DNA of 29,998 nucleotides from Candidatus Firestoneibacteriota bacterium. GTDB lineage: Bacteria > Oederibacteriota > D2-FULL-39-29 > JBBTED01. The stretch lies in contig JBBTED010000121.1 in NCBI GenBank assembly GCA_038042445.1, positions 1 to 29,998 of the forward strand, in the 5' to 3' direction. Shown in pieces: positions 21,001 to 27,000 of the stretch. Position 1 is the first letter of the stretch. Each line of letters starts with the position of its first letter. The position numbers are program-made.

Positions 21001-24000
21001 TAAGATTAATATTAGTGGATGGACAAATTACTGGTTTACTTCTGCAATTGATCCTACAGATAGTAGCAAAAAAGTAAATGATTTTGTCTGGGCGGGTGGT
21101 ATAAAATACGGTGTAACGAATGATTTTTTGTTGGGAATAGATATTTTATACTTTAATTGGAGTAAGTCTTATCCTACACCTGTAACTGGTGAAGCAAAAT
21201 TTTCACTTACACCAATTTTTATTGCAGGGCAATATAATTTCCCTATTGAAGATGTCCCGGAATTATTGCCAAGTATTAAGCTGGGATTTGGATTTATTCC
21301 AACTAAAGTTATTACTTCTGTGAGTGTTGGAAATGTTTCAGTTATATCTGAATCTAATGAAAATAAATTTGGGTTTGAAGTAGTAACAGGTATAGAAATA
21401 TTTGCAGGCCCTGAATTCTCAATTGGTATGAATATAGGCTATTTATATAATGGATATGCTGATTTGAATGGTATATTTTTAGGCAGCGGTTTAAATGGAT
21501 ACTTTTAATTAGGGACACATCCCTAATTAAAATCAAATACCAAAATTTAAATATCAAATATATTTTTGATTAATAAGGAGGAATATATTATGCAAGAACA
21601 AATAGATGATTCTAAAATATTTCAGTTTTTATTTATGGAATTGGTTTATTCTTTTCAGAATATGGCTATTATGCAATTAGGTAAGATTGTGAATCCTGTT
21701 ACAAGCAAAGTAGAAAAAAATTTGCCACAGGCAAAAGCTACAATTGATATGTTAAGAATGTTGAAAGAAAAAACAAAAAACAACTTAAGTCCTGAAGAAG
21801 AAAAACTTGTAGAACAGGTGGTTTTAAATCTTCAGTTGAATTATGTAGATGAGGTAGAAAGAGACAAAAAGGAAGCAGAAAAGCCGAAGAGTGAATGAAT
21901 TTCATAAAGGCATTGAGTACAGGTTTATATCTTGGATATTTTCCGATTTTTCCGGGAACAATTGGAAGTTTGCTTGGGATGTTAGTATATCTGCTTGTTG
22001 GAAAAAATAGAACCATATTTTTTATAACATTATTTTTTTTATTGACTGTTGGAACATTTTCAGCTATTAAAACACAATTGTTGTTTAAGTCAGATGATCC
22101 TCCTGAAATAGTGATAGATGAAATCACAGGATTTTTTATTTCAGTAGCATTTTTACCATTTAAGTTATGGATTACAATTTTAGCTTTTGTAATATTCAGG
22201 ATATTAGATATATTGAAACCATATCCTATATCGTTTTTTCACAAAACATCATCTAAATTTGGTATAATGGCTGATGATATTGTTGCAGGTGCTTTTACGT
22301 TTTTAATAATGTTCATAATTTTAAAAATATTTTAATATGGCGAGTGTAGAAATAGTTAGTATAGGGACAGAATTACTTTTAGGCCAGATTCTTGACACTA
22401 ATTCTACATATATTTCTCAGAAACTTGCAGAAATAGGAGTGGATGTATTTTTTAAATCTTCAGTTGGAGATAATGAAACACGTATTGAAAATTGCATACG
22501 ACAGGCTTTTGAACGTGCAGATATTATTATTGTTACAGGCGGACTTGGACCTACAGTTGATGATGTAACAAAAAACGCTGTAGTTAAAGTTCTTGGGAAA
22601 AGGTTGTTTTTGAATGAGAAAATTTTAGAGAAGATAAAAAATAATTTTAAACATCGTGGTGTTTCGATGCCAGAGAGTAATGTTTCACAGGCTATGATTC
22701 CACATGGTGCAATAATTATTGATAATGAATTAGGCACTGCTCCCGGATTATTGATAAACCATAACAGCAAAATTATAATACTTCTTCCTGGTGTTCCAAG
22801 AGAAATGAAAGCAATGATTGAAAATAATGTATTGCCGTATATTAAGAAGCATTATCATAGTGATAAATCCGAGATTATTAAATCTAAAGTATTAAAAGTT
22901 TTTGGAATGGGCGAGTCTATGGTAGATGCCAAAATACTTGATATATTCAAATCATCATCTAATCCAAGTATAGCATTGTTAGCAGACACAACAGAGGTGA
23001 AAATAAGGCTTACTGCAAAAGCTAAAGATGAAATTTTTGCATTGAAACTTATAGCACCACTTGAAAAAGATATAAGAAACAGATTGAGAGACAGTATTTT
23101 TGCAGTTGATGATGAAACAATGGAATATGTTGTTGCAAAATTATTACTTCAAAGCAAACTTACAATTTCAGTGGCAGAATCTCATACTGGTGGATTTATA
23201 TCGCATAAATTAACAAATATTCCAGACAGTTCTAAATATTTTAAAAGAGGCATAATTGCATATAGTGATGAGTCTAAAGTAGAATTGCTTAAAGTTTCGC
23301 CAGAGGCAATACGTTTGTTTGGTGCTGTGAGCAAACAAGTGGCTGATGCTATGGCAGATGGTGTTCGACGTATAGCAAATACAGATATAGGTCTTGCTGT
23401 TACAGGAATAGCTGGTCCATCCGGGGAAAGAGAAGGTAAACCTGTAGGCCTTGTGTATATAGCAATGGCATGGAAGGATTCATCTATATGTGATGAATAC
23501 AAATTAAAGGGCGACAGAATTTTAATTAAGGAGCAGACAGCTCAGCTGGCATTAGATGTGCTTCGCAGGTATCTTCTTAAAATGCAAAACGTAAAGTAAA
23601 AAATGAAAAACTAAGAAAAGCTTTAAATTTTTAATTATAATTTTTAGCTTTATACTTTGAGTTTTTAGTTTTTTGTGTGAGGGGGAAATAGTATGAAAGG
23701 TAAGCTTAATATATTATTGGTAAGTTCTGAGGTTGTCCCATTTTCAAAAACAGGTGGTCTTGCAGATGTTGCTGGTGCTTTGCCAAAGGCATTGTTTAGT
23801 CTTGGGCTTGCAGATGTCAGGGTAATAACACCAAAGTATAAAACTGTAGATGAAGATAAGTTTGGTCTTAAAGAAATTGGGAAAATTAGTGTGCCTATTT
23901 CAGATAAAATTGAAACCGGTAAAGTTAAATTTTCTGTTTTTCCTAAAGTTGGGGTTCCTGTTTATTTTATTGAAAATGATAAATATTATATGAGGGATGA

Positions 24001-27000
24001 ACTTTACCGCACAAAAAATGGTGATTATCCGGATAATGCTGAAAGATTCATATTTTTTTCTCGTGGGGTTTTGGAAGCTATGAAATTAATAGATTGGGTG
24101 CCGGATGTAATTCATTGTAATGATTGGCAGACAGGGTTAATTCCAGCATATTTGAAGACAATTTATAAAGATGATAAATTCTATAAAAAAACAGCAACAG
24201 TTTTTACTATCCATAACCTTGCATACCAGGGTCTTTATTCCAAAGAAATGTATTCACTTACTGGTTTGCCAGAAGAATTATTTTCGCCATCTGGAATAGA
24301 ATTTTGGGGAAGTATGAATTTGATGAAGTCAGGGCTTGTTTACTCTGATGTTATTTCAACAGTTAGTGAAACTTATGCTCAGGAAATTCAGACTACAGAT
24401 GAGTTTGGCAGGGGACTTGAGGGTGTTTTACGTGACAAAAAAAATGATTTGTATGGGATTGTAAATGGTATTGACTATGAAGAGTGGAGTCCTGAAACTG
24501 ATGAATATATTGCTATTAATTATGACCTTGTAAATATAAGGAAGAAAAAAAGAAATAAAGATGCATTATTATCAATAAATGAATTGCCGGTTTTAAAAGA
24601 TTTTCCACTTATTGGGTTAATATCACGTTTGGATGACCAAAAAGGTTTTGATATTTTGTCTGAAGTAATGGATGAATTGATGGATATGGATATACAATTT
24701 GTTCTTCTTGGGACTGGAGATAAAAAATATCATGAATTATTTGAAGGGTTGGAATCCAAATATCCTGAAAAACTTTCTGTAAATTTAGTTTTTAATAATA
24801 AAATTGCTCACCAGATATATGCTGGTTCTGATATATTTTTAATGCCATCTAAATTTGAGCCATGCGGTCTTGGTCAGTTGATAAGTTTTAGGTATGGGAC
24901 TGTTCCTGTGGTAAGGGCAACAGGCGGGCTTGCTGATACAGTAGAAGATTTTGATTTAAAATCAGGTAAAGGCACAGGTTTTGTTTTTAAAGAGTATTCA
25001 AGTGGGGCATTGTTAGCAACATTAAAACGTGCAATTGATATTTACCATAATAGAAAAGCATGGGCAAAACTTGTTATTTCTGCAATGACTGCTGATTTTT
25101 CATGGGAAAATTCTGCAAAAAAATATATTGATTTGTACGAAAAAGCATTAGAAAAAAGGTCATAAAATTTGTGTAGTATGCGTTCTATTAAAGAAGAAAC
25201 CCTTGCTTATATTTTTATATTACCTGCTCTTTCAATAATTTTTATTTTTCATATTGTTCCAGCACTATATGCTTTAAGGATTAGTCTTTATTCCTGGGAT
25301 ATGATAAGTTCAGTTAAAGAATTTGTTGGGTTGAAAAATTATATTTTATTACTTTATGACAAAGAGTTTTGGAAGTCTCTATTTAATACTGTCTATTTTA
25401 CACTCGGAGTTGTTCCACTAAGTATTTTGATTTCATTGGTAATTGCATTATTTCTCAATACTAAAATCAGAGGGCTTTCATTTTACAGGTCAGTTTATTT
25501 TTTGCCGGTTGTTACTTCAATGAATGCTGTAGCTATGGTGTGGCTGTGGATATATAATCCTGATTATGGAATTTTAAATTATTTGCTTGGGAAAATTGGA
25601 ATTTCTTCACAGAAGTGGCTACTTAGCCCATATCTTGCAATGCCTGCAGTAATATTAATGAGTATATGGAAAAGTCTTGGCTATAATATAGTAATATATT
25701 TAGTAGGTTTGCAAAATATTCCTGAAGAATATTATTCAGCTGCACAGGTGGATGGTGGTGGAAGATTTGCAATGTTAAAACATATTACAGTTCCTTTACT
25801 TATGCCGACTACATTTTTTATTATAACAGTATCTTTTATAAGCGCTTTTCATACTTTTACACAGATTTATATGTTGACCCCTGATGGTGGTCCATTAAAA
25901 AGCACATCTCTTATTGTTTATTATCTTTACCAAAACGCATTTGTTTTCTTTAAAATGGGATATGCATCTGCAATGGCATTTGTTCTTTTTATAATAATGT
26001 TTTTATTCACTCTGTTACAGCATAAGTTTTTGGAGAAAAGGATACATTACGAGATATGAAAACTAAAGTTTTTATACATATTGTGTTATTTATAGGGATT
26101 ATAATTATGTCGTTTCCGTTTTTATGGATGATTCTGACTTCTTTTAAGCCTCAAGATGAAGTATTGCAGATTCCTCTTAAATGGCTGCCAACAAAATTTG
26201 AATTTTCAAATTATATACAGGCATGGGAATCTGCCTCATTCGGTAGATATTTTTTCAACAGCATATTGGTTACAGTAATTACAGTTTTTGGGCAAATTTT
26301 CACATCTGCGCTTGCGGGTTATGCTTTTGCCAAAATGAAATTTACAGGAAAGAACCTGATATTTTATGTTTTTCTTGGTACAATGATGATACCCTTAGAG
26401 GTAACACTTATACCAAATTATATTTTGATGAAAGAACTCGGCTGGCTTAATACTTATTTTGGACTTATAGTTCCATGGTTTGCTTCAGTATTTGGCATAT
26501 TTCTTATGCGTCAGTTTTTTAAAACTGTGCCACAAGAACTTTTTGAAGCCGCTGAAATGGATGGGTGTGGGCATTGGAGTTATTTATGGAAAATTCTATT
26601 TCCTATTTCAACACCTGTTTTTGTGAGTGTTGGAATTTTTTCAATGATTAGCACTTGGAATTCATTTCTATGGCCGCTTATAATGACAAATTCCACAAAT
26701 ATGAGGACACTCCCAGTTGGTTTAACATATTTTACACTGGAGTTTTCAACAAGGTATCATTTGTTAATGGCAGCAGCGACTATGGCTATATTACCTGTAG
26801 CTTTGGTATATTTTATAGCACAACGCCATTTTATACAAGGCATAGCCCGCACAGGTTTAGGATAAAACGAAATTCCCTCCCTGATAAGGGAGGGTTAGGG
26901 TGGGTTATAGAGCTTGTGCCAAAACCCTATTTTGTCATCCTGAACGCAGTGAAGGATCTCGTTTTTAAAGGACTTTAAAGCGAGATTCTTCGGCTACTGC

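Follow-up and report, generated by a model that had tools for sequence, protein, structure and literature searches.

We propose that, in the phylum of this Candidatus Firestoneibacteriota bacterium, activated glucose for an ordinary ADP-glucose-type glycogen synthase (GlgA) is probably supplied by a protein that joins a sugar-1-phosphate nucleotidyltransferase to a phosphomutase. The gap that such an enzyme would fill, with glgA present and neither glgC nor glgE, is real. The presence and absence of the fusion, its operon context, its clade and its active-site residues could be observed directly, and on distribution, operon context and active site it accounts for the data better than either the GalT-like enzymes or UDP-glucose.

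The glgA gene lies in the analysed window, a 29,998-nucleotide stretch of DNA, next to genes for a carbohydrate ABC transporter:

23693..25165, + strand: glgA, GT5 glycogen synthase of the bacterial ADP-glucose type, 490 aa (TIGR02095, PDB matches, nucleotide-site motifs)
23680..23685, + strand: purine-rich ribosome-binding site, 7 bases 5' of the glgA start (sequence reading)
25169..26059, + strand: carbohydrate ABC permease, UgpA/MalF-like (NF007852, 157 bits, below cut-off)
26056..26865, + strand: carbohydrate ABC permease, UgpE/MalG-like (NF008210, 156 bits, below cut-off)
27066..28367, + strand: carbohydrate ABC substrate-binding protein, UgpB-like (NF008211, 130 bits, below cut-off)

The UgpA/MalF-like permease gene begins 3 bases past glgA, an order found in all five class genomes fetched, whose glgA loci also keep the UgpE/MalG-like permease and the UgpB-like binding protein. 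Across 40 glgA loci of the phylum no donor gene recurs beside glgA. A promoter scan returned 53 matches against 44.5 (s.d. 7.6) in shuffled sequence, which is no excess. The 490-aa open reading frame scores 588 bits against TIGR02095 (cut-off 328), with KTGGL at residues 19-23, FEPCGL at 388-393, and R312 and K317 assigned by alignment. In a PDB search it matched bacterial glycogen synthases at E values of 2e-92 to 5e-90 and archaeal-type enzymes at 5e-25. Its nucleotide-site motifs are those of GlgA from glgC-positive genomes; Phe367 and Ala372 match both these proteins and rice GBSS, although such motifs do not prove donor choice. Judged by its sequence, the gene is a genuine glgA of the ADP-glucose type, in line with the first-pass annotation, which had described a classical enzyme with a KTGGL motif.

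Matches to glgA at E ≤ 1e-40 were present in 89 of 99 phylum genomes, and none of the 99 exceeded the TIGR02091 cut-off for glgC (top score 147 against 425 bits; controls positive in 8/14). The GlgE domain was found in none of five genomes of the phylum, with two controls positive; the earlier claims that both GlgC and GlgE are missing thus held on these samples. No GH13 protein was found in this genome. A divergent GlgC was sought among its seven nucleotidyltransferase matches, none of which scored near the cut-off, and sucrose synthase, another conceivable source of ADP-glucose, was found in 0/5 genomes (control positive in one). Compared with the classical GlgC-GlgA-GlgB pathway of E. coli and Agrobacterium, the system likewise has a glycogen synthase of family GT5, with matching motifs, but it has no GlgC orthologue and its putative branching enzyme belongs to GH57. 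The GH57 homologue (contig C67:15667-17250) scores below both lineage-specific NCBIfam cut-offs; its WLPEC and YDAELFGHWW motifs align with 5WU7 and with 2B5D (E 1.5e-166), which we take to be a branching enzyme by activity. The pairing of such a homologue with GlgA, previously described as phylum-wide, stands for this genome but is not universal, as one was found in only three of five other genomes examined. Glycogen phosphorylase (glgP) gave no match in this genome, which is 90% complete; because glgP occurs in 92/99 phylum genomes, including 12/12 class relatives, the missing match is probably due to a gap in the assembly. The same count led us to reject the idea, suggested by that absence, that a GalT-like enzyme and GlgA together stand in for glycogen phosphorylase.

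The candidate donor enzyme and its features are as follows:

contig C59:56414-58912: nucleotidyltransferase-phosphomutase fusion, 832 aa, resembling mannose-1-phosphate guanylyltransferases

The fusion occurs in 94/99 phylum genomes and in 87 of the 89 that carry glgA. It is present in all 35 glgA genomes that have neither a GalT-like enzyme nor galU, and in 10 of the 11 without any GalT-fold candidate. In both genomes of one family (f10; 83% and 89% complete), glgA, glgP and the fusion are absent together. Exceptions run both ways: one 100% complete genome (G088) has the fusion and no glgA, and two (G004, 90%; G080, 88%) have glgA and no fusion. A gene so nearly universal could also be retained for cell-envelope sugars. 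Within the phylum the fusion was found beside glgA at 0/20 fusion loci and at 1/40 glgA loci, there about 16 kb away. Elsewhere it sits in glycogen operons. Three Geobacteraceae loci have the gene order fusion-GH57-GalT-like-glgA; metagenome loci place the fusion directly upstream of glgA in 10/18, with a 4-base overlap in 3/3 measured, and these operons probably represent one lineage. In a second phylum lacking glgC (0/18), 11 of 12 loci have the fusion adjoining a GH57 gene.

Fusion and glgC tend to exclude one another. Among 24 glgC-negative genomes the fusion was present in 16, 12 of them of the clade type described below, and absent from eight; among 26 sampled glgC-positive genomes it was found in none. 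The two genes do occur together in three Geobacteraceae, and in four Ktedonobacteria without glgC the fusion is of the Glu type in 3/3 readable cases. Fisher's test of the fusion clade against glgC gave 2e-5, or 0.002 with the Geobacteraceae included, values that overstate the association because related genomes are not independent.

The front half of the fusion consists of a sugar-1-phosphate nucleotidyltransferase followed by a left-handed beta-helix, and the rear half has a degenerate phosphohexomutase fold. Among NCBIfam models, NF052502 fits the front half best, at 283 bits (cut-off 440); against TIGR02091 the fusion scores 130 bits (cut-off 425). The front half shares with GlgC its nucleotidyltransferase and beta-helix layout (TM 0.69-0.76 to AGPase chains). 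In a tree, the fusion nests among GDP-mannose-pyrophosphorylase-like proteins, outside the clade of 16 GlgC/GlgD sequences. It has the fold of the GDP-mannose pyrophosphorylases (VTC1, GMPPB) and of the Glu-type guanylyltransferase-phosphomannomutase fusions, but its clade departs from them: 92 of 93 readable members have exchanged the guanine-binding Glu, Asp-Phe forms the sugar site, and the motifs of the mutase half have decayed. The 95 clade sequences have P (42), A (33), T (9), S (7), L (1) or E (1) at this position, with two unread, so that a small residue occupies it in 91/93; Glu stands there in the remaining 112 fusions and in 20 short relatives. The fusion on C59 lacks the E-x-x-P-L-G-T guanine motif and has Ala79 and Asp82 instead. 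In related enzymes, the base site binds guanine through Glu and uracil through Gln, with base preference depending on several factors (PMC6981941). The catalytic GxGxR, Asp106, EKP and WxDxG elements are conserved, and the sugar site, Asp190-Phe191, is as in the GlgC set and unlike that of most short relatives.

The phosphohexomutase half has, to judge from its sequence, lost its catalytic motifs: of 84 clade sequences, 70% have Pro for the His of the S-H-N phosphoserine loop, whose Ser persists in 85%; in the D-x-D-x-D-R metal loop, 6% retain the second Asp and 76% carry Glu in place of the third. Without the typing loop, all 86 full-length proteins held together (support 0.985), and two of 95 sequences broke monophyly in the front-half alignment. 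A structure model of the fusion (pLDDT 93) confirmed the fold; the nucleotide could not be discerned from it. The nearest structure to the front half is 8X7S (sequence E 2e-61; TM 0.82, 35% identity), tlr0611, a non-GalU UDP-glucose pyrophosphorylase that we take to be the protein named CugP. The two share INTGIY, but tlr0611 has no mutase half and differs in the base-binding-loop insertion. Its name, glucose-1-phosphate uridylyltransferase, speaks for the proposed role of the fusion but also labels tlr0611 as UTP-using, a counterpoint to ATP use by the fusion. Our literature search, mostly of open-access texts without supplements, returned no paper on a nucleotidyltransferase-phosphomutase fusion, on DUF4921 or on a GalT-like glycogen gene.

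From these features we infer that the fusion is an independently evolved glucose-1-phosphate nucleotidyltransferase, with ADP-glucose its most likely product. A stand-alone mutase encoded next to it would provide glucose-1-phosphate, which the fusion would couple to an NTP, with ATP the likeliest choice, yielding ADP-glucose. GlgA, with GH57 branching and trimming enzymes, would then build glycogen. The dead mutase half would probably sense a sugar phosphate, and the GalT-like enzyme may act as an accessory on the ADP-glucose pool.

The most plausible competitors of the fusion are the GalT-fold proteins, of which this genome encodes three, on C50 (adjoining galK), C86 and C110. Two of them are ADP-glucose-phosphorylase-like:

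contig C86:259-1257: ADP-glucose-phosphorylase-like GalT protein
contig C110:10095-11093: ADP-glucose-phosphorylase-like GalT protein

They had been put forward as donor-forming enzymes. On a wider version of this idea, GalT-like proteins would serve part of the families and full-length DUF4921 the rest, each transferring AMP via a histidine from ATP or ADP to glucose-1-phosphate; we consider this unlikely. The C86 protein is indeed closer to 1Z84 (276 bits, E 3.6e-81) than to GalT structures (111-160 bits; 4.7e-31 for 1HXP, presumably E. coli GalT), as previously claimed, and its class-wide identity of 66-70% agrees with the earlier 67-70%. We take 1Z84 and 2H39, the closest structures, to be Arabidopsis At5g18200, an ADP-glucose phosphorylase by name and activity. 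The HxHxQ motif is intact in C86, C110 and DUF4921. One or other family is present in 78/89 glgA genomes, and DUF4921 in 35/35 of those with neither the GalT-like enzyme nor galU; the earlier single DUF4921 count (25/31) cannot be kept, as it mixes weak matches from the 330-aa GalT-like enzyme with a separate 440-aa full-length DUF4921. Linkage to glgA, reported as missing, is indeed missing inside the phylum (none in 20 GalT-like and 20 DUF4921 loci), but outside it the GalT-like gene lies directly upstream of glgA in 57/79 loci. The GalT-like enzyme is therefore a glycogen-linked gene there, yet its pattern is not that of a replacement for GlgC, because 44 of the 57 linked genomes keep glgC and only 41 of the 89 phylum glgA genomes carry it; unlike the plant enzyme, these copies co-occur with glgC outside the phylum, and their activity is predicted. 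Neither family occurs in eleven of the glgA genomes, several of which are 97-100% complete. Were ADP the donor, the net reaction with GlgA would amount to glycogen phosphorylase run backwards, and cellular phosphate normally pushes that reaction towards degradation. UDP-glucose from GalU is an improbable donor by our estimate. Pseudomonas aeruginosa, Chlamydia and Aeromonas offer precedents (PMC11046441); P. aeruginosa GlgA and archaeal GlgA with GH57 enzymes likewise work without GlgC but use UDP-glucose or several donors. This genome does carry galU (383 bits), as does each of the 11 glgA genomes that lack a GalT-fold candidate, but the earlier suggestion fails phylum-wide: galU was found in 50 and not found in 39 of 89 glgA genomes, with none in families f8 (0/5), f11 (0/1) and f12 (0/31). 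Moreover, GlgA is not of the archaeal type, and its nucleotide-site motifs match plant starch synthases as well as glgC-positive genomes. A eukaryote-type UDP-glucose pyrophosphorylase matched 0/5 genomes, and no control either.

Another nucleotidyltransferase could be involved:

contig C136:27633-28706: short Glu-type nucleotidyltransferase, 350 aa

It seems distinctly unlikely that this enzyme makes GDP-glucose, or that a patchwork of family-specific donors operates, with the fusion left to envelope sugars. The short enzyme is widespread in the phylum, and in two class genomes a distance of 6-12 kb separates it from glgA; a GDP-mannose pyrophosphorylase homologue yields GDP-glucose in Streptomyces venezuelae (PMC5247666), and one Haloarcula enzyme is a GDP-glucose pyrophosphorylase. 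Against this, the short enzymes mostly carry mannose-type N-A-G and Glu motifs and were not seen within glycogen operons, while a patchwork would require several independent changes where the fusion requires none, and would leave the fusion's operon position elsewhere unexplained. That glgA persists as a leftover with no donor to use, an idea put forward for Waddlia (PMC7935935), is highly improbable: the lack of a glgP match in this genome would fit, but glgA is intact in most of the 89 genomes, glgP is present in 92/99, and no GlgE route was seen in the five genomes examined.

The GlgC reaction is regarded as the step that commits bacteria to making glycogen and at which the pathway is regulated, and a 2021 paper held that no other GlgC-like activity had been established in prokaryotes (PMC7935935); a genome with glgA and without glgC is accordingly counted as incomplete or assumed to use UDP-glucose. 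More tentatively, the fusion may be a second, independently evolved ADP-glucose pyrophosphorylase, derived from GDP-mannose-pyrophosphorylase-like fusions by loss of the guanine-binding Glu, with a dead phosphomutase as its built-in sugar-phosphate sensor, and serving this phylum and several other deep lineages without glgC. If so, a widespread family resembling mannose-1-phosphate guanylyltransferase/phosphomannomutase would need a new name, the glycogen pathway of many uncultured lineages would become complete, and a new allosteric design would be open to study.

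The window encodes a 490-aa glycogen synthase (23693-25165; TIGR02095, 588 bits) which, in a comparison with PDB sequences, matches bacterial and plant enzymes much more strongly than those of archaeal type. Downstream of glgA lie two carbohydrate ABC permeases and then a binding protein, an order kept in 5/5 class genomes fetched. In this genome (2.81 Mb, 181 contigs, 90% complete), five proteins match GH57 at E<1e-8, and three of them look glycogen-related: C67:15667-17250, closest to 2B5D and 5WU7, and C21:92558-94738 and C18:43437-45599, which we take to be amylopullulanase-like and glucanotransferase-like, labels backed by the occurrence of such genes in glycogen operons of other organisms. 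Neither GH13 nor glgP was matched in this genome. A 720-aa GH57 gene sits within an apparent mannose-type PTS gene cluster (C18:42033-49260), the PTS labels being our presumption from the translations. The window also holds a CbpB peptide-modifying radical SAM enzyme (1136-2461, minus strand; TIGR04163, 493 vs 375 bits, above cut-off), two small overlapping genes at 6968-7934, which resemble a Panacea/DUF4065-type antitoxin with a partner toxin, and, at 15949-19071 (minus strand), a putative radical SAM gene of KamA-like type together with two putative ATP-grasp genes resembling D-Ala-D-Ala ligase.

The first-pass annotation had reported glgA without glgC or GlgE across the phylum, and this gap was confirmed. 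None of 99 phylum genomes carried glgC over the cut-off (best match 147 vs 425 bits, TIGR02091; 8/14 controls pass), while glgA was found in 89, with a 90th copy split over contig ends, and glgP in 92. GlgE and sucrose synthase were each absent from the five phylum genomes examined (0/5), and a GH57 branching enzyme was present in 3/5 other phylum genomes. At its nucleotide site, GlgA has similar motifs whether the sequence is from the phylum (40 compared) or from a glgC-positive genome (55 compared). Glycogen phosphorylase comes in two types across the phylum: PF00343 matches are full-length in the organism's own class and in families f11 and f12, and are weak and partial in most of the remaining families.

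GalT-like enzymes had been proposed as makers of the missing donor, with UDP-glucose as the alternative; neither proposal spans the phylum. The 330-aa GalT-like enzyme (C86:259-1257) matches 1Z84 (E 3.6e-81), which we take to be Arabidopsis ADP-glucose phosphorylase. Its strong orthologues (E<1e-70) occur in 44/99 phylum genomes and are absent from families f7, f8, f11 and f12 and from genome G018; full-length DUF4921, a different protein of 440 aa, occurs in 63/99. The lack of linkage noted earlier held within the phylum, where glgA was near neither gene (20 loci each), but not outside it: in 57 of 79 loci (80 loci minus one whose GlgA score was identical to that of a phylum member), glgA is immediately preceded by the GalT-like gene, two of these 57 being broken or partial, and a contig end truncates six of the remaining 22. 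However, 44 of these 57 linked genomes also have glgC (E<=1e-60). The GalT-like gene is a glycogen gene but no stand-in for GlgC. As for UDP-glucose, galU was detected in 57/99 genomes, and families f8, f11 and f12 gave no match. From 35 glgA genomes of the phylum, glgC, galU and the GalT-like enzyme are all missing, and 11 have no GalT-fold candidate of any kind; taken singly, none of the proposed donors accounts for the whole phylum. UDP-glucose use is described in Pseudomonas, Chlamydia and Aeromonas (PMC11046441); the portion of that source available to us mentions neither GalT nor guanylyltransferase.

All 37 genomes of f8, f11 and f12 (G033-G037, G042-G073) lack a galU match and carry full-length DUF4921, a GalT-fold protein with an HxHxQ motif. 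Where GalU is missing, DUF4921 may be a source of UDP-glucose or an exchanger of nucleotides in its stead, although families f13-f23 have both. No paper on DUF4921 was found in the literature searched. GalT domains in 700-750-aa frames of six genomes (G076, G078, G082, G083, G095, G098), four of which also have weak GalU-like domains in 640-660-aa frames, suggest fusion proteins.

The best weak TIGR02091 matches in the phylum were mostly frames of 830-900 aa. The corresponding protein in this genome is:

C59:56414-58912, a fusion of an NTP_transferase domain, a beta-helix and three PGM_PMM domains

The fusion was found in 94/99 phylum genomes (E<1e-57), including 87 of the 89 with glgA; we took one further match, 26% identical, to be a different mutase and did not count it. 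Both f10 genomes lack fusion, glgA and glgP together. A stand-alone phosphomutase follows the fusion in 13/20 phylum loci, and glgA is near it in 0/20.

Outside the phylum, we searched all 24 glgC-negative genomes and 26 of the 55 glgC-positive ones (every second one, first 26), and a fusion was present in 16/24 vs 0/26. The Asp motif of the clade found here was seen in 12 of the 16 (two of these are truncated at contig ends and one spans two contigs); the other four are Ktedonobacteria fusions, which retain the guanine-site Glu in the three that are readable. Some of the negatives are probably gaps, since no completeness figures are given for these genomes. Fusion and glgC coexist in three Geobacteraceae outside the 26-genome sample, with glgC away from the glycogen genes. 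Three Geobacteraceae loci have the order fusion, GH57, GalT-like gene, glgA. Eighteen of 24 metagenome loci are fusions, with glgA immediately downstream in 10 and a full set (two GH57 enzymes, GalT-like gene, DUF4912-like gene, GH57 branching enzyme, fusion, glgA) in seven; these fusion-glgA loci are probably one lineage. The phylum of G153 (18 genomes) has no glgC (0/18), and there the fusion adjoins a GH57 gene in 11/12 fetched loci, seven also with the GalT-like gene. In eight further glgC-negative genomes, the fusion is not beside glgA; a mutase lies near it in two and a GH57 gene in one.

A tree of 244 front halves (loci collected here plus those among 150 representatives that cover the domain) resolved one clade of 95 (support 1.0) with Pro, Ala, Thr or Ser in place of the guanine-site Glu; the 112 remaining fusions and 20 short relatives have Glu there, and GalU has Gln. 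With the typing loop removed, 93/95 still grouped on the front half and 86/86 on full length. Inspection by eye places a Pro or Ala of GlgC close to the small-residue site, in an alignment blurred by an insertion, and the GlgC set shares with the fusion the sugar-site Asp190-Phe191, presumably glucose-binding. Glu-type fusions have the same Asp-Phe site and therefore may make GDP-glucose. The structure model (pLDDT 93) is closest to 8X7S, then to GDP-mannose and ADP-glucose pyrophosphorylases, and in the rear half the His and most residues of the metal loop are gone. The equivalent Glu of HddC binds N1 and N2 of guanine, uridylyltransferases carry Gln, and mutants at the site use ATP slightly more, with the authors' warning that several factors contribute to base preference (PMC6981941, consulted in part).

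Five Ktedonobacteria, so named by record title (L193, L196, L197, L204, L183), have glgA without glgC; four carry a fusion, which is of the Glu type wherever it could be read, and in none does the GalT-like gene adjoin glgA (0/5). Their glucose donor could be GDP-glucose.

In the pathway we propose, sugars would be imported by ABC transport, or glucose-1-phosphate would come from a GH94 phosphorylase; such a gene lies directly upstream of glgA in 8/40 phylum loci (L108:6388-8733 and seven others) and could be a feeder. The stand-alone mutase and the fusion would then yield NDP-glucose, most likely ADP-glucose, for chain elongation by GlgA, with branching and trimming by GH57 enzymes and degradation by GlgP; the GalT-like enzyme would probably drain or buffer ADP-glucose. 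We infer all of these activities. That the fusion is the donor enzyme we consider likely, and for its product we lean slightly towards ADP-glucose. In 12 f12 loci (L100:10427-11713 and 11 others), glgA is directly followed by a GGDEF diguanylate cyclase that also has an RsbRD-like head and an AMPK1_CBM glycogen-binding domain, a hint that c-di-GMP signalling may be linked to glycogen.

We found no description of the fusion clade in the literature searched, and older genome papers or supplements may mention it. In the portions consulted, PMC7935935 states that no GlgC-like homologue had been established, PMC12525153 lists ADP-, UDP- and GDP-glucose pyrophosphorylases together under a single column, and PMC5247666 shows that annotations within this superfamily can miss true substrates. 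Overall, the gap recognized in the first-pass annotation stands, and the search for its donor shifts from GalT-like enzymes and UDP-glucose to the fusion. The fusion pathway would be a variant of the known glycogen pathway, a claim that is directly testable.
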